This document shows, one piece after another, positions 1-24,069 of a DNA stretch of 27,814 nt; within the stretch, counting starts at the first letter, position 1; each line of letters starts with the position of its first letter. A program made the translations under genes and the position numbers. Source of the stretch: Candidatus Bathyarchaeia archaeon (lineage in GTDB: Archaea; Thermoproteota; Bathyarchaeia; Bathyarchaeales; Bathycorpusculaceae); assembly GCA_049512935.1 (NCBI GenBank), contig JBEKWR010000026.1:1-27814 (forward strand), written 5' to 3'. The notes under the pieces are model-generated. The model had not been told where the DNA came from. It did no database searches and saw only the letters and a program-made list of their open reading frames with translations.

Positions 1-1611
1 GACGTGTGCTCCGAAGGTTCCCTGCGTGAGAACTATGTAGTGATTAAGGTTGATCATGCCTGCAGTTGCTCCAAAGATTCCGCCGCTTCCGCCGATGGCC
101 CATGCTGAGTCACCTGAACTCCATTGTGGACTGACTGATATGTTCCAGTCGTAGGCAGGCGTTACGTCAGGTAGGGCTGATGCTGACGGTAGTTGTGCCC
201 ACGCGGTTCCAGTCCAACTCCATGCCTTTCCGCTTGCTGGTGCGGTGGTTGGCATTGCCGGTGTCAATGGAATGTTGGCGATTTCTGATCCGCTGTACCA
301 GTAGCTTGTTCCTGTGCCTAAGTATTGGCCGAAGACTTTAGTTGAGTTCCACTCTTGCAGGTAGTACACTGGAGGACCTATGTCAACGCCGTATGCATTT
401 TTTGGCGCTAGGTCAACGAGGCTTATGATTAGGTATTGTCCGCCTGGTCCCATGACTGCGTCGCCGCTTGGAATGTTGGTGACGTTCATGCTTGTTAGGA
501 CTCCTGTCATTGGGTCGTATCCTGCCCACGCTGGGGTTCCGCCGAAGCTTCCGAAGCCTGGAATGTAGAATCCGCCGATTGAGTATTGCGCGATCAGTAA
601 TCCGTCAGGTAGGATGCCTGCTTGGTTTGGCTGGTCCATTGTTGGTAGGTAGCCGAAGGATGGTACTAGGGTGATGCCTGCGAAGGGTCCGCTGGATGGT
701 GTTGGGTTGATGCTCCAGAGTTGTTGTCCTGTTTCCATGTTCCATGCGACGTAGTTTCCGCCTGTGCCTGCTTCACCGAAGGGCAGTTGGAAGAAGAGTA
801 TGCCGTTCATGATGATTGGGTCGCCGAATCTGATGTTGTATGAGCCTCCTTGGTAGTATCCTTCGCCTGGAATGTTAGTGTCGTTTCCGCCGACTATTCC
901 TCCGAACTGGATTGGCTGTGTCCACATCATGTGTGCCGTTGTTGGTGCTGCGCCGTCAGGTTGAATTGCGCCTGAGTGGCCGCCGAACGTCACGATGTAC
1001 GGTGCCTCCAGATAGTTGGATGCGACCGTGTACCAGTTCCAGTTAGTTCCGAATATTGGGTATGTCCAGTATGCGGTTGGAAGAGCAGGTGTTGGGACGC
1101 CGGTTGAAACTTGTGTTTGCCCTACTGTCACGTTTATCGGGCCGTAGCTTGCTGCGGTGAAAACGTCGCCTGTGTAAGCTGTGCTTGCGCCAGGTGTGCT
1201 TGCTGTCCAAACGTAGGTTTGCGCTGGGTAGTTAAATTCGAACGAGTAGGTGCCTGTTTCTGCGGCGGTTATCGTGTAGGCTTGGAAGCCTGTGGGGTCG
1301 GCGATGTATGCGAATGTCTGTGTTGTGACTTTTCCGTCTGGGGCTGTGATGGTGAGCTGGTAGTTTTCTCGTCTGATCGTGTTGGCGGAGCCTGGGACTT
1401 CAGTTGCGCCTGGCACAGCGTGGTCAACCCACATGTAAATGTTGATGGCTTGGCCGACGCCGACAGGGTTAGGCGTTGCGCTCATGAAAGCGTAGGATGT
1501 GATGGTCCATGGTGGTGAATGTGCGCTTGCTGTAAATAGTGTTCCACTCATCGATACTGTCAAGATTATAGCAATCAAAATAGCTAGGGTTTTCCCTTTA
1601 GATTTTTGCGT
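1..1611 (-). CDS. PQQ-like beta-propeller surface glycoprotein, paralog 1 (5' part; 3' end runs off the window)
   Basis: Not in the ORF track. Hand translation gives (M)QKSKGKTLAILIAIILTVSMSGTLFTASAHSPPWTI...RRENYQLTITAPDGK...GGNYVAWNMETGQQLWSIN...TQGTFGAHV, clearly homologous to the other two copies. ACG at 1611-1609 follows SD AAGGAG (1626-1621); an in-frame TAG lies upstream. Confidence 0.88.
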
Positions 1612-1620
1612 ATGTCTATT

Positions 1621-1692
1621 CTCCTTAGTTTTTTGAACAAAAGCACTTAGCTATTGTTCAAGATTTCATTATCGTCTCTTACTGCTTATAAA
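1621..1692 (-). promoter_or_regulatory. TATA box (TTTATAA), leader hairpin (1634-1660) and SD of paralog 1
   Basis: On the minus strand: TTTATAAG at 1692-1685, then ~25 nt later TGAACAATAGC-taagt-GCTTTTGTTCA, then AAGGAG. Confidence 0.7.
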
Positions 1693-2134
1693 TCTATTTA
1701 CAAATCAAGGCATATGATATAGAAGAACTAGCGCAATTGTCAGCATAAGCAAGCGTGCAGCTTATCCTTTTTTTTCTTTTGGAACCGTTTTGAAAAAAGA
1801 TTTTTTTCTGTTATTTTGGCAGATTTGGACCTGTATTCTGACTTGTTTTCGGTGAAGGTTGGACCTTCGGAGCTTAAATTGTTAAAGTGACTTAAATCTA
1901 AGTGGCGCTATTAAACAAGCCTTTTTTAGGCATGGCTGATGAAGAGCTAAGGTTCTTGTAGGAAAACCGCCAGGTAGACCTGAGCAACTTTCAGGTGTGC
2001 ACCCATGAAGGTCTTGAGAAACGTTTAGTAACAGCAAGGGTTTGCGCAGGTTTTGCAAAAGGGTTTTTTTGATAAGATATTGTTGTCCAAAATTGTTACC
2101 GGTGGACAATAACTTGATTTGTTTTCTATGCGAA

Positions 2135-2184
2135 AATCTTAAAAAATAAAAAAGAAAGGAAGATTTGTTTTGTGTTGCCTTTTT
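2135..2184 (-). terminator. T-rich archaeal terminator of paralog 2
   Basis: TCTTCCTTTCTTTTTTATTTTTT on the minus strand just after the stop; near-identical to the 3' region of paralog 3. Confidence 0.6.
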
Positions 2185-4845
2185 TTATGGTCGTTTTCTG
2201 AGGATTAGTACCGTTGCTACTGCTAGTGCGATGATCATCACTATGATTGCTGCTGCGATGTACATTGTCAGTTCTGATGTGTTGACGAGGTTTCCGAGTG
2301 GCGTGGCTGTGGGTGCTTGTGTTGGTGCTGCTGCTTGTGCTACGAACGAAGTTGAATCTGACGAGCCCCAGTACGCTGCTGAGCCTGCAAATGATGCGAC
2401 GACGGTGTAATTGCCTGGTATGTCTGGTGCCCACGAGAGCGTGTACATGCCCATGCTGTTGGTTGTTGCGACGCCTATGACGCGGTTGTTTCCGTTAGAG
2501 TCTGTTACGCTGACGGTGACTGGTACGCCTGTGAAGGTGGTTGGTTCTGGCTGCTGCATGTAAACATACTCCATCCACGGGGTCATGCACGATACTGCTG
2601 CGCATGGAACGCCGTGTGGGAAGTCTGCTGCTTGTTCAGCTTGCTTTGTGCCTGCGGATATGTCCATGACTGTGCCGCGTATCACTATGGGTGCGCCCAC
2701 GGTGGTAGTTGTGTCTGGCGCCGTAACGGTTGTTGCGCTTGGTCCTTGACCATAAGCGTCGATTTGCTGGTCGTAGGTGTTGTCGACGACTGCGATGCCG
2801 CTTGCGATGGCGATGTTGCCTCCGTACATCAGGTTGCCGTAGTCTGGTGATGACCAGATGAGCAAGCCTGTGGTTGCGTTGATGGCGCGTAGCGCGTACT
2901 CTGGATAGAGCGGGCTGTTAGGTGAGTGTTCACTGCTGATGGTGTAAACTACTCCGCCCATTATGGTTGCGATGATCTGTGGTGTGTAACCGTAAGGCAG
3001 GAAGTTCGCTTGGGTGCTGTTGTCAGGTGCGCTGCCGCATCCGAAAGTCCACAGCAAGTTTCCTGTCTTTGTGTCAAAGCAGTATAGCATGCCGTCGTAG
3101 CTAGCCCAGTACATATGGCCGTATGCAACGTTTTCCTGTGAGCTGCCGTCACCCATGTAGTTCCAGCCGCTGTAAGATGTCTGCGGAACGGTTACTGGAC
3201 CCCAGACCTGTGAGCCTGTGCTTAAGCTAAAGCCTAGGTGATCCATTGCTTCTTGGTCCCACATGATGACTATGCCTGTGCTTGGATCCCATGAGCTGAT
3301 GATTCGGCTGTTGTTGCCTGATGCCTGCGGATAAGTCTGCCACCAGTTAATGGTTCCAGCTGGAACTCCGTTAGCGTTGGGTGTAAGGTTGATTTCGGTC
3401 ATGTTTGCGTTGTATGTCTGCGGTGACACTGCCATGGAGTTAGCGTGGCCTCCGAAGGTTCCCTGCACCAACAAGACATATTTGTCTAGTTGTAGGATTG
3501 GTGCGCTTCCGCCTCCAGCGATTGCCCATCCACTGTCGCCTGAACTCCATTGTGGACTAACTGATACGTTCCAGTCGTATGCTGTTGGTAGGCTTGCGTT
3601 TTCTGTGCCTGTGTACCATCCGCTGGTTCCTGTGCCTGAGTAGACGCCGAAGACTTTACTGCTGTTCCATTCCTGCAGGTAGTACTTGGGTGCACTTGAG
3701 GTTCCGTAGTTGGTGAGGATGATCTTCAGGTATTCGCCCATCGGCCCGGCTAAGTTGTCTCCGCCTGGAACGTTAGTGACGTTCATGGGCGTTAAGACGC
3801 CGTCCATTGGGTCGTAGAACCGCCAGACTGTGCCTTGGTTCGTAACTGATGTTGTCGCGACCAGTGCGCCGTCAGGTAGGATTCCGTGCTGGTTTGGCTG
3901 ATCCATTGAGGGCAAGTATCCGAATGATGGCACTAGTGAGACGCCTGTTGCTGATGCGTTTATGCTCCAGAGTTGTTGTCCTGTTTCCATGTTCCATGCG
4001 ACGTAGTTTCCGCCTGTGCCTGATTCACCGAAGGGCAACTGGAAGTAGAGTACGCCGTTCATGACGATTTGGTTGCTGAATCTGATGTTGTATGAGCCGC
4101 CTTGGTAGTATCCTTCGCCTGCGATGTAGGTTTCGTTGCCGCCTACTATGCCTCCCCACTGGAAGGGCTCAGTCCACAACATGTGCGATGTCATTGGCAC
4201 TGCGCCGTCAGGGTACGCGGGGATGTTGCCCGTGTGGCCGCCGAAGGCTGGAGTGTAGGGTCCCGAGAGCCAGTTAGAAGCGACCGTGTACCAGTTCCAG
4301 TTCAATCCGTTGATTGGATAGGTCCAGTACGCGCTTGGCAGTGATGGCTGTGGCTGTCCTGCTACTGCTGTCTGCTGTACGGTTACGTTGACTGGTGCTG
4401 CTGTTGATGCTTCAAATATGTCGTTCTGGTAAGCGCCGCTCCAAGTGTAGATTTGCTGTGGATAGTAGAAGACGAAATTGTAGGTGCCAGTTTCAGTTGG
4501 GGTGAAGAAGTATGATTGGATGCCTGTTGGGTCCCAAACATCAGCCCAAGTTTGTGTTGTGACTTTTCCGTCTGGGGCTGTGATGGTGAGCTGGTAGTTT
4601 TCGCGTCGAACGCTGTTTGCCGCTCCTGGAACTTCAGTTGCGCTGACCACCGGGTGGTCTACCCACATGTAAATTTGCATGGGTTGGCCGACACCAACTG
4701 GGTTAGGTGCGCAGGTTAAGTATGCGTAGTCGATGATGTTCCACACCGGGGAGTGCGCCTCCACGGTGAAGAGTGTTGCGCTCATTGATATTGCTAGAAT
4801 TAAAGCGATCATAATGGCTAGTATTTTTCCTTTAGATTTTTGCGT
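2185..4845 (-). CDS. PQQ-like beta-propeller surface glycoprotein, paralog 2 (~886 aa from the proposed ACG start)
   Basis: Signal peptide, PQQ-type blade motifs (LYCFDTKTGNLLWTF, LRAINATTGLLIWS), Ig-like C-terminal region, Pro/Thr linker, C-terminal TM plus RKRP, many N-x-S/T sequons. The ORF track starts it at GTG 4908. Confidence 0.9.
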   Translation of the reverse strand, partial: TQKSKGKILAIMIALILAISMSATLFTVEAHSPVWNIIDYAYLTCAPNPVGVGQPMQIYMWVDHPVVSATEVPGAANSVRRENYQLTITAPDGKVTTQTWADVWDPTGIQSYFFTPTETGTYNFVFYYPQQIYTWSGAYQNDIFEASTAAPVNVTVQQTAVAGQPQPSLPSAYWTYPINGLNWNWYTVASNWLSGPYTPAFGGHTGNIPAYPDGAVPMTSHMLWTEPFQWGGIVGGNETYIAGEGYYQGGSYNIRFSNQIVMNGVLYFQLPFGESGTGGNYVAWNMETGQQLWSINASATGVSLVPSFGYLPSMDQPNQHGILPDGALVATTSVTNQGTVWRFYDPMDGVLTPMNVTNVPGGDNLAGPMGEYLKIILTNYGTSSAPKYYLQEWNSSKVFGVYSGTGTSGWYTGTENASLPTAYDWNVSVSPQWSSGDSGWAIAGGGSAPILQLDKYVLLVQGTFGGHANSMAVSPQTYNANMTEINLTPNANGVPAGTINWWQTYPQASGNNSRIISSWDPSTGIVIMWDQEAMDHLGFSLSTGSQVWGPVTVPQTSYSGWNYMGDGSSQENVAYGHMYWASYDGMLYCFDTKTGNLLWTFGCGSAPDNSTQANFLPYGYTPQIIATIMGGVVYTISSEHSPNSPLYPEYALRAINATTGLLIWSSPDYGNLMYGGNIAIASGIAVVDNTYDQQIDAYGQGPSATTVTAPDTTTTVGAPIVIRGTVMDISAGTKQAEQAADFPHGVPCAAVSCMTPWMEYVYMQQPEPTTFTGVPVTVSVTDSNGNNRVIGVATTNSMGMYTLSWAPDIPGNYTVVASFAGSAAYWGSSDSTSFVAQAAAPTQAPTATPLGNLVNTSELTMYIAAAIIVMIIALAVATVLILRKRP

Positions 4846-4855
4846 ATTTTTTCTT

Positions 4856-4933
4856 CTCCTTTTAAGTTTTTTTTTGAACAAAAAGCGTGTTAGCTCTTGT
4901 TCAGCCACTCACTACGGCTGTTTTGTTTATAAG
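4856..4933 (-). promoter_or_regulatory. TATA box, leader hairpin (4875-4903) and SD of paralog 2
   Basis: CTTATAAA at 4933-4926; TGAACAAGAGC-taacac-GCTTTTTGTTCA; AAGGAG at 4861-4856. Confidence 0.7.
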
Positions 4934-5139
4934 ACTATCTCTAGTTTAAGGCAATTATATGGAAAGAACTAGTACAATCATTGAAGCATTTTGCAATTGT
5001 CGAAACAAGGTCGTCAAGAAAAAGCGTTTTGTCCAAAAAGGCAGCGGGGGAAGCGAGAATGAAATTTCCGTGTTGCATTTCGAAATGTTTATGCTTAAGC
5101 TGCATCCATTCTGAACCAAGCGTGGGGAAACGTGGATCC

Positions 5140-6078
5140 ATGGACTCTGATGTCTGCAGCGCCTGCCTAAGCAGAGAAGCCTTCTTTCACAGGCAGTACT
5201 CAGGGGAAACTCTGTGCAGACGATGCTTTGCTCGCTCCGTTGAGGACAAGGTGAGATCGTGCATCACACGTTACCGCATGCTCAGCTTTAACGATCATTT
5301 AGCCGTCGCAGTTTCAGGCGGCAAAGATAGCCTAAGCCTACTGCGCGTCTTAACCAAGCTGAAACGGTTCCGCTCCCAGACCACGCTGACCGCCGTAACC
5401 GTTGACGAGGGCATAGCTGGCTACCGAGATGAAGCCCTTTGGGTCGCGGCGGAAAACTGTCGGAAACTCGAAGTTCCCCATCATGTGGTTTCTTTCAAGG
5501 ACCTTTACGGGTTCACGCTTGACGAGATCATGCAGAGGCTTCGGGGCAAAGGACGAACGGAGTTGACGGCATGCGCTTACTGCGGCGTGCTGCGGCGCAA
5601 AGCCATAAACATCGGAGCCAGGCAGGTCGGCGCAAACAAGGTTGCGACAGCGCACACTCTTGACGATGAGGCGCAAACGGTGCTGATGAACATTTTCCGC
5701 GGCGACGTGGCGAGGCTGGCGAAGCAGAAGCCCGTGACAAACGCGGTGCATCCGCTGCTGGTTCAGAAGATTAAGCCTTTCTGCGAGATCCCCGAGAGGG
5801 AAAGCGCGCTTTACGCTTACGTGAAGAAAATCAAGTTCCAAGATACTCCGTGCCCGTACGCTTCTGAAGCCCTACGCAACGACGTCCGCTGGATGCTTAA
5901 CCGCGTGGAGGCAAAGCATGCTGGAACTAAATTCACCGTTCTCAAAGCCATGGAGCGCTTGAGACCCGCGCTTGAGAAAACTGTGGCTGAGGAAGAGTTT
6001 AGGACTTGTGTTGACTGTGGGGAGCCGTCTGCGGGGGATTTGTGCAAAGCGTGCGAGATGCTGCGGCAGGTACGCTGA
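5140..6078 (+). CDS. TtuA/Ncs6 (TIGR00269-type) tRNA 2-thiolation protein
   Basis: N-terminal CxxC/CxxC zinc finger, PP-loop SGGKDS, CAYCGVLRR, TAHTLDDEAQT, CPY, C-terminal CxxC...CKAC. Likely start is ATG 5140 (MDSDVCSAC). Confidence 0.92.
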   Translation: MDSDVCSACLSREAFFHRQYSGETLCRRCFARSVEDKVRSCITRYRMLSFNDHLAVAVSGGKDSLSLLRVLTKLKRFRSQTTLTAVTVDEGIAGYRDEALWVAAENCRKLEVPHHVVSFKDLYGFTLDEIMQRLRGKGRTELTACAYCGVLRRKAINIGARQVGANKVATAHTLDDEAQTVLMNIFRGDVARLAKQKPVTNAVHPLLVQKIKPFCEIPERESALYAYVKKIKFQDTPCPYASEALRNDVRWMLNRVEAKHAGTKFTVLKAMERLRPALEKTVAEEEFRTCVDCGEPSAGDLCKACEMLRQVR

Positions 6079-6082
6079 GCTT

Positions 6083-6289
6083 TTACTGTGTGAAGCCTTG
6101 TTCGCTTTTCAGTTTTCGAAGGAGTTTCGAAGCTTCGAACGGGTTGCTTGCCGACGCCACCTTTTGCGCGCGTGACAGGTCCACGTGTGCGCCGCAGTAG
6201 GGGCAGATTTTGGTTTTCTGCGCCTTCGTGGTCAACATTAAACCCTGGCACTGCGTGCATTTGACGATTTGTGTTGGCTTCATTTGCAT
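6083..6289 (-). CDS. Small zinc-ribbon protein (DUF1922-like)
   Basis: MQMKPTQIVKCTQCQG...KTKICPYCG...; two CxxC pairs. The upstream extension in the ORF track is antisense to the next gene. Confidence 0.8.
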   Translation of the reverse strand: MQMKPTQIVKCTQCQGLMLTTKAQKTKICPYCGAHVDLSRAQKVASASNPFEASKLLRKLKSEQGFTQ

Positions 6290-6355
6290 GTTGCTTCCGA
6301 AAGGCTTTTCCCCGTTGTGGTTGATAAGGGTATGCAGGGAAGATTGGCGAGAGTC

Positions 6356-6718
6356 ATGAGCGTTGAACGCGAAGGGCCGAAGTCCAGAACCCACCTGACT
6401 GAACTGGCGGTTAAGTACTTCAAGAAGGAAGGCTACAAAGTTAACAAAGAAAACGCTACGCTGGACGGATACAGCGGTGCAACCCGCCATTTCGACCTGA
6501 TAGTGCAGAAAGGCCGCCAAGAGCAGGGCGTCTGGGTACGCGATTGGAACCGAACGGTCGGCGTGAACTTGATCATCGGGTTGGACACGGCGTCGGAAGA
6601 CGTTGGCTTGGGCAGCCCCATCATGATTGCGGACAAGTTCAGCGACCACGCGAAATCGTACAGCAACCGAAGAAAAATCACGTTGCTGACCAAGCAGAAA
6701 ATGGGCAGCTTCATGTAG
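6356..6718 (+). CDS. Mrr-type restriction-endonuclease-fold protein, degenerate active site
   Basis: YFKKEGYKV...GYSGATRHFDLIV...IMIADKFSDHAKSY...ITLL matches the Mrr_cat pattern; the ExK position reads WVR. Confidence 0.7.
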   Translation: MSVEREGPKSRTHLTELAVKYFKKEGYKVNKENATLDGYSGATRHFDLIVQKGRQEQGVWVRDWNRTVGVNLIIGLDTASEDVGLGSPIMIADKFSDHAKSYSNRRKITLLTKQKMGSFM

Positions 6719-7010
6719 ACGCCGATGCGGGCAGATTTTTTTCTTTTGCGGATTGTTTTTTGGAACCCATATTTGTGTTGGGTTTTTGATGTAAATACTA
6801 GGTACCCCTGTGGGGTAGTCTGTTTTTGGAAGCGCTTGAATCAGGTTGGTTTTTTGGTTCAGAGCTCAAATCTGGCTTAGGGAAATTTGTCTCCCGGGGC
6901 GGCAAGCAAAAAATTAGCCTGCAAAACAGGTATCACTCGGTTTATACCTGAAATCCAGCTCCTTTCAAACGACAACCCGCTCCAGTTGCCCTAAAGCGTA
7001 GCCACTAAAC

Positions 7011-7032
7011 TTGAGGTACTGGTCGGTTAAGC
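7011..7032. repeat. 22-bp direct repeat copy 1 (TTGAGGTACTGGTCGGTTAAGC)
   Basis: Identical to 7447-7468, the 3' end of the AK6 gene. Confidence 0.9.
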
Positions 7033-7190
7033 GTTTTTGACTTTCACACACGCCTTTATCCCTTTTTTGGTCTTTAATAGGTCAGAGCGAAATTGATGTT
7101 TTTCAACGGGCAATCGGCTGAAGGCTTCCTGCCAATTCTATGTGAAAAAATATAAGTTGATTAGACAAGTCATTATTTAGGGCGAAGTAA

Positions 7191-7403
7191 GTGGGTACCC
7201 AAGTTACGCTTGAAATGATTTATGATGAAGTCAAACAGGTGAATGAGCGGTTGAGCCTTATCGAGGATGCACTTGAGGAAGTTTTTGTGAAGGGTCTTCC
7301 TAAGGTAACAGTAAGCGAAGAGGAAAAAGACGAAATCAAACGTTCGATTGAAGAAATGAATAAAGGCAATTGCGTAACACTTGAGGAACTCAAAAGTTCC
7401 TAA
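7191..7403 (+). CDS. Small acidic antitoxin-like protein (archaeal RelB-like), no toxin adjacent
   Basis: C-terminus EEEKDEIKRSIEEMNKGNCVTLEELK resembles archaeal antitoxins that usually precede RelE; TATA-like AAAAAATATAAG near 7145. Confidence 0.65.
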   Translation: MGTQVTLEMIYDEVKQVNERLSLIEDALEEVFVKGLPKVTVSEEEKDEIKRSIEEMNKGNCVTLEELKSS

Positions 7404-7439
7404 AGAAAGAATATACAATATGAACTGACGATTTTTGTG

Positions 7440-8027
7440 TCAGACTTTGAGGTACTGGTCGGTTAAGCCTTCCCTCTCAAGCATGCCCAGCCAATCCACG
7501 ACGCCGACGAAGCAGGTTTTGCGTTTCTCCAAAACATCCAAAATGTCCCCGACGACCTGCTCGACTGACTTGCCCGTGACATCCATCTCGCAGACTCTGC
7601 CCGCATGCACCTCCACCGCCTCGCCCAAGACGACGTCGATGATTTCTGCCTGCAGGTTCTCCCAGAGCTTGCTTCCCGTGTAGCCGCATCGCTCCATGAA
7701 CTGCTTGAGCTCTCTGGGGTCTCTCCGCAGAACAAAAACTTGCGCGACATGCTCGGTTGGCGTGACGGCGCTGGCGTAGTGCCCGTCGATGATGATGTTG
7801 GCGTTTTCTGAGGCGTTTATGGTTTCGCCGAGTTTCTGCTGCATGGCTTCCTCGTCGATTATGAGGGTGTTTCTCTCTTTGTCTTCGCCCGTGGTCAAGT
7901 TGTTTTCTTTTGCGTAGTCGGTCAGGTTGATGTATTGGCTGTTAGGCAGCTTTGCAGCTAACGCTTTCGCCGTCGTTGTTTTGCCCACGCAGGGAGTCCC
8001 CGTTATGAGTATGACTCGTTTGTTCAT
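7440..8027 (-). CDS. AK6/Fap7-family adenylate kinase
   Basis: ILITGTPCVGKTT P-loop, IIDGH Walker B, VFVLR...KLWENLQAEI. Confidence 0.92.
   Translation of the reverse strand: MNKRVILITGTPCVGKTTTAKALAAKLPNSQYINLTDYAKENNLTTGEDKERNTLIIDEEAMQQKLGETINASENANIIIDGHYASAVTPTEHVAQVFVLRRDPRELKQFMERCGYTGSKLWENLQAEIIDVVLGEAVEVHAGRVCEMDVTGKSVEQVVGDILDVLEKRKTCFVGVVDWLGMLEREGLTDQYLKV
7447..7468. repeat. 22-bp direct repeat copy 2 (last codons of AK6)
   Basis: Identical to 7011-7032. Confidence 0.9.
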
Positions 8028-8112
8028 GCCTGATGTGTTGTTTGAGGAAAGTTTTATCCGTTCCGCTTGGCTAAGCGTTTGATTGTATGATGGCGAAAAA
8101 GGACGGGTTCGG

Positions 8113-10430: not shown

Positions 10431-10441
10431 ACCTTTCGCAC

Positions 10442-15102: not shown

Positions 15103-15162
15103 TTAAACGCGCTTACAGCGTTTTTCCCTTTTTTAAAATTAAATTTTTGCGCCCGTAAACGA

Positions 15163-15321: not shown

Positions 15322-15492
15322 TCGAAAATTGCCTCCTTCTAAAATTTCCGTTGCAACCTATTATCCAGTTAAGCCTATTTTAGGCTGCCTACTGAATGAA
15401 GGGAATCCCTGATATTTAGGTAATTTTGGGTACTCAACGTTTTAGAAAATGATAAATACTGAATGTTTTGATACGTAATTCGGGAATTAGCT

Positions 15493-15894
15493 GTGGCTAA
15501 ACTTAGGGTTAAGCCGTTGAAGGCAACTGTATCGGCAATAATAGGAGTTGTATTTTTGGTTCTCGCCGCTTGGCAATGGGGCACAGATTCCGTTGCATCT
15601 TTCGTCCTCGTTTTATGCAGCTTCTTTTCTTTCATGGCTATCCCCGCATTCATCTACCCGCTCAGCAAAGGCTCCGTTCAACAGCACTCTCCGAGCCCGA
15701 CACTGATAAGAAAGGAACCCAAAGACCCCTTGGAGCTGGAAAAAGAAATAGGGCACTTAAACGGGAAGTTTCAAGTTGTCGGTATGATAAATATTGCAAT
15801 CGGACTATTTCTGACGGTTTATGGGTTACGGCAGCCGCTTTTTTTCATAATAGGATTGTTCGATGTGGGATTAGGGTTTTACCTGTTTTTATAA
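15493..15894 (+). CDS. Small four-TM hypothetical membrane protein
   Basis: Two hydrophobic hairpins separated by a charged linker. Confidence 0.6.
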   Translation: MAKLRVKPLKATVSAIIGVVFLVLAAWQWGTDSVASFVLVLCSFFSFMAIPAFIYPLSKGSVQQHSPSPTLIRKEPKDPLELEKEIGHLNGKFQVVGMINIAIGLFLTVYGLRQPLFFIIGLFDVGLGFYLFL

Positions 15895-16014
15895 TTCGCA
15901 CCAAAACAGCACCCAAGCCAGACAACCCACCCATTGCTGCGGCATACCTTCTGGTTTTTTTCGAAAATTATTAAAGCGCTAACTTGCATAACGTAACATC
16001 TGGAGAACAAACAA

Positions 16015-16104
16015 ATGCCGAAAAAAGAAAAACCCTTAACTAAAAAAGAGCGAGACGCAAAAAGAAAAGCACGTAAAGAAAAGCCGAGTAAAACACAGAG
16101 CTAG
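16015..16104 (+). CDS. Basic microprotein D (29 aa)
   Basis: MPKKEKPLTKKERDAKRKARKEKPSKTQS; BRE/TATA GAAAATTATTAAA near 15963-15975, SD GGAG at 16002, downstream GGGAAAA..TTTTCCC hairpin. Confidence 0.65.
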   Translation: MPKKEKPLTKKERDAKRKARKEKPSKTQS

Positions 16105-16362
16105 AATCTGTGGCTGGAGAGTGGGAAAATCCTTTTTTCCCAATTTTCCCCTTCAGTTCTTGCATGAAATAAAAAATCGCTGCGTTTTTTTAAAATTCTT
16201 TTTGCTGCCAACCTGCAAGTTCCAAAACCGTAGGGTTAAGCTTCTTTTATCGTGACTGCTAAAAGTCAAGTTTTTCTTAAGACGGTTGTTTTTGGGGAAA
16301 GCATAATAAGAAATCGCGCCTCCATACTTAGCCTTAAGGAACGCAGACAAGGAAAATTTTGA

Positions 16363-17169
16363 ATGGAACAAAAGAAGGGTGTAAGCATAAAAGTTGCCTT
16401 AGGCGTCGCGGTTCTCTGCATCGTTTTAGTGGTTGCTGTGGTCGGCGTGTTTGAGAATGAAAAGTCAAGCCTTCAAAGCGAAGCGTCTTCTAAGAGCTTA
16501 ACCATCACCTCTTTGAACGCTGAAATCATTTCCTTGAACACTCTAATAGCTAATCTTACAGGGCAGATAACTTCAGAGAACGCTTCAATAACGAGCCTCC
16601 AGAACCAGCTTATCACTGACACCAACAAGTCTGCAACTCAACACGACTCAATACAGACGTTAATAACATCAGAAGAAGCCTCGGAAGCAAGAGATGAAGC
16701 GCAGGTATCCTCTTTGAACACGCAATTAACAAACTTGAAAAACGGGGTTTCAACGTTAATAGACAATTACGAGCCGTCACCGAGCAACCCTGCAAGCAAC
16801 TACAGCGGCACTGGCCAATTTAACATCGCCATCCCAGTGGGGCAAAGTCCGCTTTCAGGAGCGACCACGGCAACCGTCAGTTGCCCTGTTGCGCAAAGCG
16901 GAAACAGCGTGCAGTTGGCTTTGGAGCTCAAGTTTACAAGCGTCACGGGAAGTGTGCCGTTGAGCACCGGCGAATCCATGACTTTCAACTTTGCCGGCGC
17001 AACTTCTGGCTCACAAGTTAGCGCGACTGCTCAAGGTCTCTTCGGAAGCCTCATTTTCAATTTCAACCTTGACGGCACAATCACGCAGAACACGTTGACT
17101 TTCACGTTGAAGTCGGCTTCAAACTCTCAGGTCACCATCTCCACGCCTCAGCAGATAGCTCTCTCTTAG
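16363..17169 (+). CDS. Membrane-anchored coiled-coil protein with beta-rich C-terminal head
   Basis: N-terminal TM, heptad Ser/Thr-rich stalk, beta-strand-rich C-terminal domain. Confidence 0.8.
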   Translation: MEQKKGVSIKVALGVAVLCIVLVVAVVGVFENEKSSLQSEASSKSLTITSLNAEIISLNTLIANLTGQITSENASITSLQNQLITDTNKSATQHDSIQTLITSEEASEARDEAQVSSLNTQLTNLKNGVSTLIDNYEPSPSNPASNYSGTGQFNIAIPVGQSPLSGATTATVSCPVAQSGNSVQLALELKFTSVTGSVPLSTGESMTFNFAGATSGSQVSATAQGLFGSLIFNFNLDGTITQNTLTFTLKSASNSQVTISTPQQIALS

Positions 17170-17283
17170 GCGCATGCCGCTAGGCGGATGAGACAGTGCG
17201 CAAATGGGCGTTCTTAAGAAAAACATAAAAAGAAAACAGGCTTTACAGGAAAAGACGTGAAGGAAACAACAGGAAAAATTTTA

Positions 17284-18948
17284 ATGAGCGAAAAGAAGGT
17301 TGTTAGTCGAAAAATTGTTTTGGCAATGGTAGTTCTGTTTATCCTTTTATTAATAGTTCTGAGCGACGTTTTGCAAAGCCAGAATGCGACGGTTCAAAGT
17401 TTAGTGTCGTCTAAAAACTCCACTATCGATACTTTAAACTCTGAAATCAGTTCCCTAAAGGCTGAAAGCGCAACGCTTCAAGGTCAAGTTTCAACAGAGA
17501 ACGCTTCTATAACGAGTATTGACGATCAGCTTAAAACTGAAAAGAGTGAATCCGCTGTTCAGAGCGCCTCAGACCAGTCTTCGTTATCGGCAGCTGAAGC
17601 GGCAGAGTCGAAAGATGAGTCGCAGGTTATCTCTTTGACCTCTCAAGTGGCGGTCTTGCAAAACCAGATTTCCTCGTTAACCCAGAACTATTTTAGCATA
17701 GTTCAAATCTCGGACACTCAATACTTGAGTGAAGCGCTTCCAAGCCTGTATGATGGATTGACCAGCTGGATCGCAAGCAACAGTCAAGCGCTGAATCTCT
17801 CGATGGTTGTTCACACAGGGGACATAGTTAATGATGCTAATGTTTCAGCTGAATGGGTGAACGCCAATGCCGCCATGATGACTCTTTACAACGACGGCGT
17901 TCCTTACTGTTGGGACGCGGGAAACCATGATCAAATAGGCACCGATGGAGTGAGCGACGGAAACGTCAACGGCACGTACATTGGTGGAAACTACCCTGCC
18001 TTCAACGTTACAATTATGCGGCAGGAGCCTTACTGGGTCGGAGACATCTTCAGCGGCGCAAGCACGGCTGTTAAGTTTAGTTTCGGCAACTACCGTTTCA
18101 TGGTCGTCAACGTTGAGTACGACGCTAACCAGACTGTCCTGAACTGGATGGAAAGTCTGTTGGCGGCGAACCCGAACGTCAACGTGATCGTGGCAACGCA
18201 TAATTTTCTTAACGGGGCTGGAACTTACGGCACCCTTGCTGCTTACGATGTAACTTGGGCGACAAACTTTGAAAAGATACTGAACAACTACCCGAACGTG
18301 TTCATGACCCTAAACGGGCACGACTACGGGGAAGGAGGCACAGCAGACAACCTCAGAGTTGGGAACAGAGAAGAGGTTTTCTTCAACCGTCAAGAAGTGG
18401 ATAACCAGATGGGCGCCGCTACCGCGCGGATCTACACTTTTGACATGAGCAGCCCGTCAAGCTGCGTCGTAACCGTCTCTACGTACCAGACTTATAACAC
18501 GCCTCAGTACATAGATGACCCATCGGACGAGTTCAGCTTTTCAACGAGCCTTGCTGCCTACTCGCCTACCAACGCAAGCATCCCGATGGGCACCTCTTTT
18601 CGGGGAGCAAGCGGTTACAGCGTGAGTTTAGGAGCCGCTGCAACGCTGCAAAGTTTCAGCCAGTACGGCGACGCACTTACATTTAACGGCTTAACCATGA
18701 ACGGTGCGGTTTCAAACTTCACCGTGACTTCAGTGGGCGCCAACATCGTCATAAACAGCTTTAACGCTACGCAAATAGCCTATACGGTTAGCGGAGGCGG
18801 CGGCAGCCAAGCTTTCACTGTGAAAACAGCTCCCACATCCGTGGAAATTGACGGAGCCGTAGTTGCAAGCGGCGACGGCTGGAACTACTTGAATGGTGAG
18901 GTCACCGTTACAGGCGCTACCGCCTCAGTTACGATAAACCTAACCTAA
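17284..18948 (+). CDS. Membrane-anchored coiled-coil plus calcineurin-like metallophosphoesterase plus C-terminal beta domain
   Basis: ISDTQ, HTGDIV, AGNHD, ATH, LNGH motifs; N-terminal TM and stalk homologous to the upstream gene. Confidence 0.88.
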   Translation: MSEKKVVSRKIVLAMVVLFILLLIVLSDVLQSQNATVQSLVSSKNSTIDTLNSEISSLKAESATLQGQVSTENASITSIDDQLKTEKSESAVQSASDQSSLSAAEAAESKDESQVISLTSQVAVLQNQISSLTQNYFSIVQISDTQYLSEALPSLYDGLTSWIASNSQALNLSMVVHTGDIVNDANVSAEWVNANAAMMTLYNDGVPYCWDAGNHDQIGTDGVSDGNVNGTYIGGNYPAFNVTIMRQEPYWVGDIFSGASTAVKFSFGNYRFMVVNVEYDANQTVLNWMESLLAANPNVNVIVATHNFLNGAGTYGTLAAYDVTWATNFEKILNNYPNVFMTLNGHDYGEGGTADNLRVGNREEVFFNRQEVDNQMGAATARIYTFDMSSPSSCVVTVSTYQTYNTPQYIDDPSDEFSFSTSLAAYSPTNASIPMGTSFRGASGYSVSLGAAATLQSFSQYGDALTFNGLTMNGAVSNFTVTSVGANIVINSFNATQIAYTVSGGGGSQAFTVKTAPTSVEIDGAVVASGDGWNYLNGEVTVTGATASVTINLT

Positions 18949-19091
18949 AATTGAAGCAGAAACTCGCAGATCTGATAATTTCGATCGTTTTTCACGCAAT
19001 GGAAAAAACCGTGTGCAGTAAAGTCGGCAGACGCCAATTTTTTCAGGGGAAAATCCTTAAAACTTAAAAAGGGCATGAGCGCCTTAAGGTT

Positions 19092-21053
19092 ATGCCAAAA
19101 TCTATTCTTTCACGTTCGGCACTTACCAAAATCCAAACACTTATTCTTGTAACTATTTTACTGATCGCAGCGGCAGACGCTGTAGCCTACCTCTATGAAA
19201 ACAATTATTTTGGAGCAGAGCAGGGCGTTCAACAGGCTGCTTCACCGACCCCCACGCCAATTCCAACCGCGCCTGTGGCAACCGCGGCTCCTCCGCCTAC
19301 CGCCTTGCCGACTTCACTTAGAGTTTCCGACTTGTTTGTAAACCCGATCGAAGCATGGCCTAACCAGACCATCAGCGCAACCGTTAAAGTCACCAATGCT
19401 GGAAGCGGAAACGTCAGTTACGAGTTTCCTTTCTCGGTAAACGGCAAAATTGTGCAGGAAGTTCCAGTTCAGCTTGGCGCACAAGCCATTGAAAACGTGA
19501 CTGGAACGTTTAGCGAGAGCAGCCTTGGAAGTTACCAGTTAAATGCTGGCGGGCAAGCCATCACGTTCACTGTTGTCACGGCTGGCATGCACACTTTGAA
19601 CGTTATTTTGAATAAGATTGGTATCAGCTTCACTTTGGACGGAAAAACCGAATCTACACCGTACACGGCGCTTGTAACTGTTGGACCTCACTCGCTTACT
19701 GTTCCTGCTTCGGTTCAGCTTGAAAATGGCATGTGGGGTCTCTGTACGTTCACGTTTACAGGATGGGACGATGGAACCCTGAGCACAACCAGAACGGTGA
19801 ACGTGCAGGGCGAAATTTACGTGGCAGGCACTTTCATTAGAACTTCGCCCACTTCATGTCCTGAGCTGTACACGTGGAACGGCACAGGTTACAACTACGC
19901 CTCAGACGTTAACGACGGCACAGGCTGGCTTGGGTTCCTGGAGTACTTCAATCCGGACGGCTCAATGCTTTTCTCCTACAACTATCCCTACGATTATATA
20001 AAATTAGATTCAGCCCAGCTTCAGCCGCTCAACGGGTTCTACAACGTGAACGTAGAAGAGGATACTAACGAAATATTCTATTTAGACTCAGTGCAGCTGC
20101 TAGCCGTGGATCACCCGGCAAACGTGAATGTTTTCTCGACGAAAAGCACGTTCGTCTACGACCTTAGCGATCAAGGAACAATTTACACTGTCAGCGATAA
20201 TTTGGCGTCTCCTGTTTCCGCGGTTAACGGCACGGGGCAAAATGTTCTTCCGTTAATCTCCAAGGTTGACAACGACTTCACGACCGCAAACAGGTGGCAA
20301 TGGAACAACCTGACGCTTAACCTCGGCAACTTGGCAGGCGCAAAAAACATTGACCTTGTGGTCGCAGCCCGAATTAACTGGCCAAGCACCGCGGCTGGAG
20401 GCGAGAACTTCATGAGTTACGCCAACAAGCCAGGAGTTATGCCTTCGCCGCCGCCCTACATGCAGGTGATGGCTGCAAACGGAAGCTGGGTTAACGTTCC
20501 TGAAAACCGAGAGTTCCCCATTCCCGCCACGACGGACCAAACGTTTGTGGTCAACTTAACAGGCTTGTTCCCGACTAACAATTTCATGTTGCGCATCAAC
20601 TATTACCAGGACATAGAGTTCGACTACATTGGCATCGACACGTCGCCACAGCAGAACATCAACGTTTACCCGGTTTCGCCTTCGAGCGCTGACTTGACGC
20701 AGGCGTATGTTCCCAACTCAACCAGTTCAGGAGCCTTCACAAGATACGGCGATGTAACATCGCTGGTTCAGTCTGCTGATAACGAGTTCGTTATTGGGCG
20801 GCAAGGTGACGTGGTGTCAATCCAGTTCCCCGCGGCGAGTCTGCCTCCTGTTCCGCAAGGGTGGGTGAGAGACTACATACTGGTTGCAAACTGCTGGTTC
20901 AAAGGCCAAGGGTTGCCATACGTGCCGTTTACTGTGAACCCGCTTCCGTTCCAAGCGATGACAAGCTTCCCGTATCCGTCAAGCGAATCCTACCCCTACG
21001 ACGCTGCACACGAAGCTTACCTGCAAACCTACAACACAAGAATAATCAATTAA
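19092..21053 (+). CDS. Secreted protein: Pro/Thr linker, CARDB-like Ig domain, and a large C-terminal domain like that of bacterial ASPIC/UnbV-associated proteins
   Basis: VKVTNAG CARDB-like segment; SCPELYTWNG, EIFYLD..QLLAVDHP, TRYGDV, GWVRDY, PLPFQAM..FPYP..E.YP, YNTR. Confidence 0.75.
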   Translation: MPKSILSRSALTKIQTLILVTILLIAAADAVAYLYENNYFGAEQGVQQAASPTPTPIPTAPVATAAPPPTALPTSLRVSDLFVNPIEAWPNQTISATVKVTNAGSGNVSYEFPFSVNGKIVQEVPVQLGAQAIENVTGTFSESSLGSYQLNAGGQAITFTVVTAGMHTLNVILNKIGISFTLDGKTESTPYTALVTVGPHSLTVPASVQLENGMWGLCTFTFTGWDDGTLSTTRTVNVQGEIYVAGTFIRTSPTSCPELYTWNGTGYNYASDVNDGTGWLGFLEYFNPDGSMLFSYNYPYDYIKLDSAQLQPLNGFYNVNVEEDTNEIFYLDSVQLLAVDHPANVNVFSTKSTFVYDLSDQGTIYTVSDNLASPVSAVNGTGQNVLPLISKVDNDFTTANRWQWNNLTLNLGNLAGAKNIDLVVAARINWPSTAAGGENFMSYANKPGVMPSPPPYMQVMAANGSWVNVPENREFPIPATTDQTFVVNLTGLFPTNNFMLRINYYQDIEFDYIGIDTSPQQNINVYPVSPSSADLTQAYVPNSTSSGAFTRYGDVTSLVQSADNEFVIGRQGDVVSIQFPAASLPPVPQGWVRDYILVANCWFKGQGLPYVPFTVNPLPFQAMTSFPYPSSESYPYDAAHEAYLQTYNTRIIN

Positions 21054-21295
21054 CAACAGGTGAGTTGATCACTTAGAGACGACAGTCGGCTACTGAAAAT
21101 TACTGGCTGTGTCTATCTGGCTTAGGTGCGGAAGGAATCCAGCTTTGAAAGTTGAGTCACCGTTGCCTTTCTCCGCTTTTTTCTAGTCTGCCAGATGTCT
21201 GCTTGGATTAGGGGCGTTGAAAACTTGTAGAAACTCATGCAGCTATTGACCTATTCCAATGTTAATTCTTGCGTTAATCCTCATCTCGATAAGCC

Positions 21296-21374
21296 TTTTA
21301 AGCAATTTGGACGCAACAGGGGAGACTATGAACAATAAGCGTACGCGCTTTTGTTCAAAAAAACTTAAAAGGAG
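21296..21374 (+). promoter_or_regulatory. TATA box, leader hairpin (21329-21357) and SD of paralog 3
   Basis: TTTTAAG; TGAACAATAAGCG-tacg-CGCTTTTGTTCA; AAGGAG at 21369-21374. Confidence 0.7.
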
Positions 21375-21384
21375 AAGAAAAAAT

Positions 21385-24069
21385 ACGCAAAAACCTAAAG
21401 GAAAAATACTAGCCATTATGATCGCTTTAATTCTAGCAATATCAATGAGTGGAGCACTTATCACGGTCAGCGCACACACACCACCGTGGACTATAATATC
21501 CTACGCTTTCATGAGCGCAACTCCTAGCCCAGTCGGTGTCGGTCAAACCATCAACGTTTACATGTGGGTAGACCACCCGATGCTAGGCGCGACGATCGTC
21601 CCCGGCCAAGCAAACAGCGTCCGACGCCAAGGCTACCAGCTAACCATCACAGCCCCAGACGGAAAAGTCACAACACAAACCTGGGCCGATACTTGGGACC
21701 CAACAGGCTTCCAAGGATACCAAATGACCCCTACTGAAGTTGGCACCTACACGTTCGAATTTAACTATCCAGGGCAAACCTACACTTGGGGCGCAAGCAC
21801 ACCTGGCGCAAACACGGCTTACACAGGAGACGTTTTCACAGCAGCAAGCTACGGCCCGATAAATGTAACTGTAACACAAGCGCAACTTCCACTGAATCCG
21901 GTTCCCCCATTGCCAACAGCATACTGGACATACCCAATCAACGGAATCAACTGGAACTGGTACACCGTCGCTTCTAACTGGCTTGAAGGACCCTACACAC
22001 CTTCCTTCGGCAGCCACACTGGTGCCATGCCCGCGTATCCAGATGGTGCATCGCCATCTACCGCGCACATGATGTGGACAGAACCCATTCAGTGGGGTGG
22101 AACCGTCGGCGGAAACGAGAGCACTACTCCTGGTGAAGGATTCTATCAAGGCGGCTCATACAACATCAGATTCAGCAACCCAATCGTAATGTGCGGCTAT
22201 CTCTACTTCCAACTGCCCTACGGTGAAGCAGGCTCAGGCGGAAACTACGTCGCATGGAACATAATGACAGGACAACAAATCTGGAGCATAAACGCGTCAG
22301 CAACAGGCGTCTCACTCGTACCATCATTCGGCTACATACCATCAATGGACCAGCCAAACCAAGACGGAATGCTACCTAACGGCGCACTAGTCGCAACACA
22401 ATCAGTCACAGGTCTAGGCACAGTTTGGCGGTTCTACGATCCAGCGACAGGCATTCTCACACCTATGAACGTAACCAACGTTCCAGGCGGAGACAACATG
22501 GCAGGCCCAAGAGGCGAATACCTGAAGATCATCCTCACCAACTACGGAACTGCTTCAGCCCCCAACTACTACTTGCAAGAGTGGAACTCATCTAAAGTCT
22601 TCGGCGTCTACGCAGGCACAGGAACCAGCGGATGGTACACAGGCACAGAAAACGCAAGCTTACCAACAGCATACGACTGGAACATATCAGTACCTTTGAA
22701 GTGGAGTCCAGGCGACGTTGGATGGAGCATTGCCGGAGGCGGCAGCGAGCCAATGATTGTTTTGGATGACTATGCAACTTTCGTTCAAGGAAGCTTCGGA
22801 GGTCACGTCAACTCCATGGCAGTCCAACCGCAAACCTACATGGCAAACATGACACAAGTAAGCCTAAAGATGAGTGCAAATGAAATTCCATCCGGAACCG
22901 TAAACTGGTGGAACACGTATCCGCAAGCACCAGAAAACCTCAGCCGAGTAATCGCCGCATGGGATCCGCAATCAGGAGTCTTCATCTTCTGGGACCAAGA
23001 AGCTATGGATCAGTACGGCTACAGCCTTAGCACTGGAAACTACATATGGGGCCCAACTGTCGCTCCAACCACCAATAACAACGCTTGGCTATACACAGGC
23101 GACGGCGGATCACAAGAAAACGTTTACAACGGCAACCTCTACTGGACTGGCTACAACGGAGCCACCTACTGCATAAGCGACAAGACAGGCGCACTCCTAT
23201 GGAGCTTCGGTGACAGCACCAACCCGAACAACAGCACATATGACGCGTGGGTACCCTATGGAAACGTTCCCACGTTCATCGACACAATCATGAACGACCA
23301 AGTCTACCTGACCAGCAGCGAACACTCTCCAATGAACCCGCTATACCCAGGATACAAAATATTCGATGTCAACGCCACCACTGGACTGCTAATATGGTCT
23401 ATGCCTTGCTACGGTAACCTCATGTACGGAGGCAACATCGCCATCGCAAGCGGCTTCGCATTAGTCGACAACACATTTGACCAGCAAATTGACAGCTACG
23501 GCACAGGACCCAGCCAAACAACAGTCTCCGCGCCACAACTTGCAGGAACCGTGGGTGTACCCCTAGTAATAAGGGGAACAGTCATGGACATATCCGCAGG
23601 AACAACGCAACCTCAACAAGCAAAAGACTTTCCAAACGGAGTCCCATGCAGCTCACTTGCAAGCATGACCCCGTGGATGGAGTATGTTTACATGCAGCAG
23701 CCAGAACCAACCACCTTCAGAGGCGTACCAGTCACGGTCAGCGTAACAGACTCTAACGGAAACTGCAGAGTAATCGGCACAGCAACAACCAACTCCTACG
23801 GTATGTTCAGTTTATCGTGGGCACCTGACATTGCAGGCAACTTCACCGTCGTTGCATCATTCGCAGGTATTACAGGAGCATACTATGGATCTTCAGCATC
23901 AACAACCTTCTACGCCCAGTCAGCGGCACCAACACCAGCACCAACAGCCACACCATTAGCAAACCTGGTTAACACATCAGAGCTTACAATGTACATCGCA
24001 GTAGCAATCATAGTGATGGTCATAGCACTAGCAGTAGCTACAGTACTAATCCTCAGAAAACGACCATAA
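21385..24069 (+). CDS. PQQ-like beta-propeller surface glycoprotein, paralog 3 (~894 aa from the proposed ACG start)
   Basis: Collinear with paralog 2 over its full length; same signal peptide and C-terminal TM plus RKRP. Confidence 0.9.
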   Translation, partial: TQKPKGKILAIMIALILAISMSGALITVSAHTPPWTIISYAFMSATPSPVGVGQTINVYMWVDHPMLGATIVPGQANSVRRQGYQLTITAPDGKVTTQTWADTWDPTGFQGYQMTPTEVGTYTFEFNYPGQTYTWGASTPGANTAYTGDVFTAASYGPINVTVTQAQLPLNPVPPLPTAYWTYPINGINWNWYTVASNWLEGPYTPSFGSHTGAMPAYPDGASPSTAHMMWTEPIQWGGTVGGNESTTPGEGFYQGGSYNIRFSNPIVMCGYLYFQLPYGEAGSGGNYVAWNIMTGQQIWSINASATGVSLVPSFGYIPSMDQPNQDGMLPNGALVATQSVTGLGTVWRFYDPATGILTPMNVTNVPGGDNMAGPRGEYLKIILTNYGTASAPNYYLQEWNSSKVFGVYAGTGTSGWYTGTENASLPTAYDWNISVPLKWSPGDVGWSIAGGGSEPMIVLDDYATFVQGSFGGHVNSMAVQPQTYMANMTQVSLKMSANEIPSGTVNWWNTYPQAPENLSRVIAAWDPQSGVFIFWDQEAMDQYGYSLSTGNYIWGPTVAPTTNNNAWLYTGDGGSQENVYNGNLYWTGYNGATYCISDKTGALLWSFGDSTNPNNSTYDAWVPYGNVPTFIDTIMNDQVYLTSSEHSPMNPLYPGYKIFDVNATTGLLIWSMPCYGNLMYGGNIAIASGFALVDNTFDQQIDSYGTGPSQTTVSAPQLAGTVGVPLVIRGTVMDISAGTTQPQQAKDFPNGVPCSSLASMTPWMEYVYMQQPEPTTFRGVPVTVSVTDSNGNCRVIGTATTNSYGMFSLSWAPDIAGNFTVVASFAGITGAYYGSSASTTFYAQSAAPTPAPTATPLANLVNTSELTMYIAVAIIVMVIALAVATVLILRKRP

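Follow-up and report, generated by a model that had tools for sequence, protein, structure and literature searches.

The window analysed here, a stretch of 27,814 nucleotides, is contig C26 of a 2.30-Mb genome (49 contigs, 47.7% G+C, 93% complete) from an uncultured peat archaeon of the Bathyarchaeia. It carries three paralogous genes, P1, P2 and P3, whose predicted products are secreted beta-propeller surface proteins anchored in the membrane at their C-terminus. At the position where relatives of these genes have ATG or TTG as start codon, each of the three copies has ACG, preceded at regular distance by the Shine-Dalgarno (SD) sequence AAGGAG (Table 1). In our reading, translation of P1, P2 and P3 quite probably starts at this ACG, by near-cognate initiation positioned by the SD.

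P1, P2 and P3 share one layout, consisting of AAGGAG, 9-10 nt, ACG CAA AAA and then a lysine-rich and hydrophobic signal-peptide segment. A sequence-only reading of the window had described this arrangement for all three paralogs, and it was borne out at every coordinate. The difference between ACG and ATG is confined to a single position, as read directly from the sequence. Read from ACG, the N-terminus of the three proteins is T-Q-K-S/P-K-G-K-(T/I)-L-A-I-(L/M)-I-A-(I/L)-I-L... By eye, QKSKGK, then ILAIMIALILAISMS, then VEA, VSA or ASA before a His might represent the positively charged n-region, the hydrophobic core and the small-residue cleavage motif of a Sec-type signal peptide. The sequence-only reading had also stated that P1 has no ATG, GTG or TTG before the hydrophobic core, which is correct, and that an in-frame TAG lies 11 codons upstream; this TAG is in fact found 14 codons upstream. 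The P2 frame holds the GTG at 4908 plus one TTG upstream of the ACG, and the P3 frame holds, besides the ATG at 21259, a second ATG at 21331 with GGAG just 3 nt before it. Starts upstream of the ACG in P2 and P3 had been said to cross a conserved leader motif in differing registers. This proved true: the motif TTGTTCA contributes the codons GTT CAA to the frame of P1, TTG TTC to that of P2 and TGT TCA to that of P3, and the leader is therefore not conserved as coding sequence. Hence no canonical start gives the conserved N-terminus: P1 has the upstream TAG, P2 and P3 share no homology at their upstream codons, before which no SD stands, and a start at codon 12 deletes the n-region of the signal peptide.

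Table 1. Positions of the features of P1, P2 and P3 and of the adjoining gene in the window.
Feature	Position	Strand	Remarks
P1 ACG at the start column	1609..1611	-	aligns with ATG/TTG starts of relatives
P1 Shine-Dalgarno AAGGAG	1621..1626	-	9-nt spacer AATAGACAT to ACG
P1 coding region read from ACG, 537 codons	1..1611	-	partial, leaves the contig end
P1 in-frame TAG, 14 codons 5' of ACG	1651..1653	-	sequence read directly
P1 first in-frame canonical codon, TTG (codon 12)	1576..1578	-	among the first residues of the hydrophobic core; rival start
P1 leader hairpin TTGAACAA..N..TTGTTCAA	1633..1661	-	upstream of the SD; -11.5 kcal/mol predicted for the 29-mer
P2 ACG at the start column	4843..4845	-	sequence read directly
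P2 Shine-Dalgarno AAGGAG	4856..4861	-	10-nt spacer AAGAAAAAAT to ACG
P2 coding region read from ACG, 886 aa + stop	2185..4845	-	
P2 in-frame ATG (codon 12)	4810..4812	-	rival start
P2 upstream in-frame GTG picked by mechanical calling of open reading frames	4906..4908	-	without SD; crosses the leader hairpin in a register that neither P1 nor P3 has
P2 leader hairpin TGAACAAG..TTTGTTCA	4875..4903	-	
P3 ACG at the start column	21385..21387	+	sequence read directly
P3 Shine-Dalgarno AAGGAG	21369..21374	+	10-nt spacer, same as in P2 (AAGAAAAAAT)
P3 coding region read from ACG, 894 aa + stop	21385..24069	+	
P3 in-frame ATG (codon 12)	21418..21420	+	rival start
P3 upstream in-frame ATG picked by mechanical calling of open reading frames	21259..21261	+	no homolog in P1/P2
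P3 leader hairpin TGAACAATAAGCG..CGCTTTTGTTCA	21329..21357	+	
HVO_0163-type/TrmB-like winged-helix regulator gene	24193..24762	+	directly 3' of P3

For comparison, 167 distinct 5' ends of the surface-protein family were collected from a genome search, species-representative genomes and metagenome contigs. An automatic rule, which accepted as canonical any in-frame ATG, GTG or TTG preceded at 3-13 nt by an SD-like core, gave 156 canonical ends (ATG 125, TTG 31) and flagged 11. By correction, P3 was moved to the near-cognate group (its chance ATG has GGAG 3 nt before it), L084 was recognised as a TTG behind GGTG, and three flagged rows, L139, L098 and the second gene of L066, were dropped as mis-framed, resulting in 164 resolved ends. 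The alignment of 5' ends that the sequence-only reading had proposed indeed places ACG opposite the start codons of other family members, as 156 of the 164 ends exhibit an SD-preceded ATG or TTG in the column of the ACG. The remaining eight are near-cognate: ACG in P1, P2, P3, L042 and L066, ATA in L080, ATC in L096 and ATT in L037. L080 and L037 have an in-frame ATG five codons upstream, too, within the SD.

Six other N-termini of the family were examined in the genome that encodes P1, P2 and P3. Two begin with TTG CAA AAA (contigs C37 and C25), one with ATG CAA ATT (C13) and one with ATG AAT (C1), and the two copies on C5 have an ATG five codons farther upstream than the ACG column. All six are preceded by an SD, namely AAGGAG, AGGAG or, on C1, TGGAG. 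None of the relatives compared combines Thr in the ACG column with a conserved Met farther upstream, and none has a homologous N-terminal extension. The earlier proposal that the family as such initiates at ACG is thus too broad, since ACG is restricted to one small clade and the six other N-termini examined in the genome use ATG or TTG; its second part, that ACG initiation was kept across diverged copies, is upheld by the comparison for the four members of this clade.

The position of the SD and the structure of the signal peptide both point to the ACG. In the 1,886 long open reading frames (ORFs) of the genome, GGAG is concentrated at a distance of 8-11 nt from the first canonical start (152 ORFs, compared with about 4 per offset elsewhere), and the distance of 9-10 nt found in P1, P2 and P3 matches this peak. 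In L042 the flanking bases differ, but an SD-like AAAGGAAA still stands at a distance of 9 nt from the ACG. Nothing resembling an SD precedes codon 12 in P1, P2 or P3. Furthermore, 152 of the 156 canonical relatives have at least 2 Lys or Arg residues N-terminal to the hydrophobic core, and the most common length of their n-region is 7. A start at ACG gives (M or T)-QKSKGK, i.e. 7 residues with 3 Lys, whereas a start at codon 12 gives MIALIL... without any Lys.

In a FastTree phylogeny of 151 proteins of at least 500 aa, calculated after removal of the first 35 residues (the signal peptide) and carrying local supports only, the ACG copies form an exclusive clade, ((P3,P2)100,(P1,L042)97)99. 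Their closest outsiders, L125, L043, L014 and L129, start with ATG or TTG, and 5 changes are needed to place the near-cognate label on the whole tree. L042, an ortholog within the clade, lies on a 4,250-bp contig of G070, a metagenome-assembled genome (MAG) of another species. When 120 genomes of the genus were searched with P1, no additional member of the clade other than L042 came up. The next-best matches to this query, L202-L207, have ATG or TTG starts.

Synonymous divergence (dS, Nei-Gojobori) within the clade is 0.67 between P2 and P3, 0.72-0.77 between P1 and these two, and 1.10-1.52 between L042 and the others. The ratio of nonsynonymous to synonymous divergence (dN/dS) is 0.18-0.33, indicating that P1, P2, P3 and L042 are working genes. 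The bases following the ACG are AAA ATC GTA AAT AAT AAG in L042 and CAA AAA TCT AAA GGG AAA in P1, P2 and P3. Despite these differing flanks, the frame, the length of 11 codons and the Lys-rich content were kept. A crude neutral expectation for three bases remaining unchanged is 0.011-0.0006, calculated post hoc for 1.5-2.5 substitutions per site and ignoring back-mutation. The homogenised 5' ends of P2 and P3 (see below) weaken this argument. As shown by comparison of the genes, ACG replaced ATG once, in the ancestor of the four-gene clade, and has been kept since then across gene duplication and speciation.

P2 and P3 are identical at 51 of 52 positions from -16 to +36, compared with 87 of 125 from +76 to +200. 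This points to local gene conversion at their 5' ends, or to a constraint at nucleotide level on the leader and the first codons. The near-identical stretch extends over 4794-4861 (minus strand) and 21369-21436 (plus strand) of the window. Due to such homogenisation of paralogs, P1, P2 and P3 do not represent three independent observations; independence comes from P1, L042 and the unrelated genes described below.

The C of the ACG itself was found repeatedly. An exact 350-nt segment from the 5' end of P2 is present in two other metagenome contigs, and that of P3 in one. Logan contigs of three sequencing runs cover 1550-2209 with no difference among those listed and reach 4844 and 21386, and the Logan unitigs break exactly at the repeat shared by P2 and P3 (4844 and 21386). 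These contigs show the presence of the C; rare variants could escape them, and one of the runs may be the source sample of the MAG.

ACG at the start position is not confined to the surface-protein genes. We scanned ORFs of at least 120 codons for in-frame codons that follow the preceding stop, come before any canonical start and have GGAG 8-11 nt before them. ACG accounted for 10 of 421 codons at this spacing compared with 5 of 956 off-peak (Fisher p = 0.004, uncorrected for 58 codons). Five of the ten ACG matches belong to conserved proteins, two are ambiguous and three look non-coding. DUF362 and Toprim, in which a TTG precedes the domain start, were regarded as ambiguous and not counted as ACG starts. 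The 16 pre-start matches of ACC, ACA and ACT, judged by eye, lie 1-2 codons before an ATG or TTG, look non-coding, or stand beside another near-cognate codon.

The five conserved proteins are HflX, MobB, an NfnA-like FAD/NAD subunit, a PIN and a PIN_3 protein, and in each of them the first canonical codon falls inside the domain. Counted from ACG, residues 4-351 of HflX correspond to positions 3-350 of TIGR03156 (first canonical codon: codon 57). Residues 4-147 of MobB correspond to positions 1-132 of TIGR00176; here a TGA lies two codons upstream of the ACG and a GTG at codon 9, in the P-loop. Residues 2-276 of the NfnA-like subunit correspond to positions 2-272 of NF004862 (first canonical codon: codon 74), and its residue 2 is residue 2 of PDB 5vj7_B. 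The PIN domain comprises residues 5-128 and the PIN_3 domain residues 10-122, with first canonical codons at codon 44 and codon 21, respectively. The N-termini read from ACG are (M or T)-KAVIVQR for HflX, (M/T)-YKIVTK for the NfnA-like subunit and (M/T)-VLVVAAVGVSGSGK for MobB.

The start column of hflX was compared in 29 genomes of the genus, in which it is occupied by ACG in 28 cases and by ATT in one, but never by ATG. All 29 genomes exhibit a GGAG-containing SD (mostly GGAGG) about 10 nt upstream, and in five (L220, L225, L231, L232 and L235) an in-frame TAA or TGA directly precedes the ACG. At the hflX loci (L217-L245), the upstream gene terminates at a conserved TAG that falls, in the +1 frame, 13-15 nt into hflX. 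The ACG thus sits in a 16-nt gene overlap, and the SD of hflX lies within the coding region of this upstream gene. The overlap might represent a context of termination-reinitiation or coupling favouring a weak start codon.

In a class-wide set of 30 hflX rows, ACG occurred 11 times, in several families, followed by CTG (4), ATG (2) and TTG (2). The other 11 rows have no codon recognisable as a start in this column (CCG, CCA, CCC, ATC, ACT, AAA, GAA or CAG), most of them with an in-frame ATG or GTG a few codons upstream. The CTG codons stand behind GGTG and belong to another Bathyarchaeia family (L285, L286, L288 and L295). For mobB, 27 orthologs were evaluated, with two paralog rows left out: ATG was found in 14, ACG in 7, TTG and GTG in 2 each and TCG in 1, and in 1 the start is shifted by one codon. 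V-L-V-V-A-A-V-G follows the start column in all 27. The TCG, behind GGAG in the mobB of G015 (L266), is two changes away from ATG. Taken over these genes, putative ACG initiation is a recurrent feature of the genus and of several other Bathyarchaeia families.

Further genes of the genome to which the window belongs seem to lack a canonical start and to have another near-cognate codon behind GGAG; they were noticed at C9:72996 (-), C10:84475 (+), C3:39660 (+), C2:78352 (-), C8:45637 (+) and C27:16520 (+). Named by eye from the N-termini, the candidates are CTG before a ribosomal protein uS11-like, a NusA-like KH and a flippase-like protein, ATC before a PstC-like permease and ATA before a response regulator. 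A DnaG-like gene, also named by eye, lacks ATG, GTG and TTG over a stretch of 130 codons.

Several observations weigh against initiation at ACG. No excess of ACG over the other Thr codons is visible in the first 40 codons of all ORFs (ACG 17, ACC 19, ACA 15, ACT 10), and in the broad genome-wide counts a clear excess was obtained for ATG, TTG and GTG only, the background swamping the rest; a signal for ACG came solely from the stricter scan before the first canonical start. Since any single-base change of ATG yields a near-cognate codon, such a codon counts as evidence only where it has persisted, which applies to the clade, hflX and mobB; in the singletons L066, L080, L096 and L037 it may stem from a recent mutation or an assembly error. 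The tree has FastTree local supports and includes a partial P1 (537 aa), and the sequences are from MAGs. With P2 and P3 counted as one lineage due to their homogenised 5' ends, the clade comprises about three lineages rather than four. Finally, all three copies retain a canonical codon at codon 12, and it is ATG in P2 and P3 where P1 and the outgroups have TTG, possibly a compensatory upgrade. It could be that translation starts there, within the signal peptide, and that the ACG and the next 11 codons are an untranslated relic of a lost start codon; in a milder form, both the ACG and codon 12 would be used. L042 has canonical codons at 9 and 12, too, and the free amino group of the unformylated archaeal Met would add some positive charge to the short product. 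We nevertheless consider this unlikely. The SD was kept 33-45 nt upstream of codon 12, at the right distance from the ACG, and the resulting product would lack the Lys or Arg residues that nearly all relatives have before the core. Between L042 and the other three copies, the ACG, the open frame and the length and Lys-rich content of the 11 codons persisted while neighbouring bases changed. Moreover, the codon-12 TTG and the codon-9 ATG also occur in the outgroups L125 and L014, which have ordinary ATG starts, indicating that they are ancestral residues and not new starts, and P1, P2 and P3 have lost the codon-9 ATG.

A start at the upstream canonical codons (GTG 4908 in P2, ATG 21259 or 21331 in P3), with P1 as a start-less pseudogene, would agree with the open upstream frames of P2 and P3, but is very improbable. 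None of these codons has an SD at working distance, the GGAG before ATG 21331 being too close, and ATG 21259 even sits upstream of the TATA-like CCTTTTAAG box of P3 (read by eye). The three copies would read their shared leader in three registers, no relative has a homologous extension, and P1, with its TAG and no upstream start, is nonetheless under purifying selection. A sequencing or assembly error at the ACG, or decay of P1, P2 and P3 into pseudogenes, might be suspected for a MAG, but is extremely unlikely given the same C in three paralogs, in the ortholog of another MAG, in two further metagenome contigs and in the contigs of three runs, and given the intact frames of 886 and 894 codons and the low dN/dS. 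Alternatively, C-to-U editing of the mRNA might turn the genomic ACG into AUG, followed by canonical initiation. In plant organelles, AUG start codons are created from ACG in this way, and the edited sites alternate with genomic ATG in the same manner as ACG does in orthologs of mobB and of the surface proteins. CTG, the other recurrent odd start codon of the class-wide hflX set, would become a canonical UUG. Differently from plant organelles, we know of no editing machinery, edited transcripts or C-to-U editing of mRNA in archaea, a topic at which our literature searches were not aimed. Furthermore, the ACG of hflX in nearly all genomes of the genus, without a single ATG, looks like selection for ACG itself, and C-to-U editing could not repair the candidate ATC, ATA and ATT start codons present in this genome and in the surface-protein family. 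We therefore regard editing as improbable. The same low likelihood applies to its general form, in which Bathyarchaeia, and possibly other archaea, would make canonical starts by editing ACG to AUG and CUG to UUG in their mRNAs; the edited sites would then comprise the ACG of the clade, hflX, mobB, the NfnA-like and the PIN genes and the CTG of hflX in the other family.

Initiation at ACG is the explanation we prefer, because the ACG stands in the start column behind an SD and was kept under selection, and because several conserved genes have no other possible start than ACG. The AAGGAG would pair with the 3' end of the 16S rRNA and thereby set the ACG, 9-10 nt downstream, in the ribosomal P site. 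There, the initiator Met-tRNA (anticodon CAU) would accept ACG despite a C-A mismatch in the middle of the codon. The product would be M-Q-K-S-K-G-K..., with Met as first residue and a signal-peptide n-region normal for the family. A scan with ARAGORN detected an ordinary initiator-like tRNA with the anticodon CAU and no CGU tRNA among 42 genes. As this set is incomplete (the MAG is 93% complete), the missing CGU tRNA says little about a special initiator tRNA. A role of the ACG as translational dampener or control point, as suggested in the sequence-only reading, would not be specific to the surface-protein genes. Dampening is plausible for hflX or for PIN toxins, but would be odd for presumably abundant surface proteins.

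Near-cognate initiation at ACG is known from eukaryotes and their viruses, e.g. for VP2 of adeno-associated virus and C' of Sendai virus. As in these cases, the genes described here carry at a conserved start position a codon that differs from AUG in one base and is presumably decoded by initiator Met-tRNA with a mismatch at the middle position. They differ in that the ACG is positioned by an SD, with no scanning or Kozak context, and is the sole start of full-length genes, whereas the eukaryotic and viral ACG provides an alternative N-terminal extension. Rare bacterial starts include the regulatory AUU of infC, and CTG, ATT, ATC and ATA are listed as starts in NCBI table 11. To our knowledge, ACG is absent from the start codons of this and any other prokaryotic table. 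An SD-led mRNA of prokaryotic type with a conserved non-canonical start is common to infC and the genes studied here. The products of the ACG genes (surface proteins, HflX, MobB, NfnA-like and PIN proteins) are not initiation factors, however, so that autoregulation of the infC type is not directly applicable.

A description of ACG starts in archaea or Bathyarchaeia was not found in the literature searched, with subscription journals and supplements outside the search. A passage of a 2014 review gives AUG, GUG and UUG as the only archaeal starts, and the archaeal factors aIF1, aIF1A and aIF2 are named there as homologs of eukaryotic fidelity factors (PMC4705826). The passage in PMC4574771 that mentions ACG concerns bases before an AUG and not an ACG start. 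If ACG initiation is true, the fidelity of archaeal initiation would be looser or differently tuned in a whole lineage, which would offer a natural system for studying codon discrimination by aIF1, aIF2 and the initiator tRNA. It would also matter for gene prediction. Programs accepting ATG, GTG and TTG only cut off the 5' part of such genes (P1 then begins at codon 12, and HflX loses 57 codons), extend them too far (P2 and P3) or miss them, and such mis-called starts distort the annotation of uncultured archaea. For P1, P2 and P3, a start at ACG restores a normal signal peptide and makes them intact, expressed-looking surface proteins. Should editing be true instead, it would represent the first case of an mRNA editing system in archaea and add a switchable layer to the control of translation.

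The assignment as surface proteins is based on predicted features. P2 comprises a signal peptide, a PQQ-like beta-propeller, an immunoglobulin (Ig)-like domain and a C-terminal membrane anchor. Its match to Pfam PF13360 (PQQ_2) reaches 33.4 bits and thus exceeds the gathering cut-off of 27.6, while P3 remains below it (24.0 bits) and the partial P1 gave no match. P2 and P3 show weak matches to the Ig-like Big_3_5/MG2 models near the C-terminus and a hydrophobic anchor ending in LILRKRP. P3, the only copy scanned with NCBIfam models, matched none of them. The remainder of P1 is probably located on contig C32 (15186-16466).

All 24 genomes of the genus in the first sample contained members of this family, and the number of matches in a genome reached 36; a dozen or more, often in tandem, were obtained for most of the genus. 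With the same query, no match was obtained in 15 of 16 genomes from other families of the order. The family is a lineage-specific expansion forming a surface repertoire.

Upstream of the SD, the leaders of P1, P2 and P3 each contain a hairpin (Table 1). Its arms, TTGA(A/G)C...G(C/T)TCAA, are conserved, whereas the interior is variable and partly co-varying, with predicted energies of -6 to -16 kcal/mol. It occurs about 45-65 nt before the start in 20 of the 167 family 5' ends, in many genomes, and is found beyond P1, P2 and P3 in L044, L045, L106, L024, L062, L080 and L175, among others. It may be a 5'-terminal stem-loop of the mRNA or a palindromic operator common to part of the family. Two other elements near the start were rejected. 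A small upstream ORF running over the SD in the +1 frame is open from a GTG in P1 only and lacks a start codon in P2, i.e. it is not conserved. An ATA overlapping the ACG (A-ATA-CG) is out of frame and reaches a conserved TAG after 9 codons. The winged-helix protein encoded directly 3' of P3 is a candidate regulator of the adjoining surface-protein genes.

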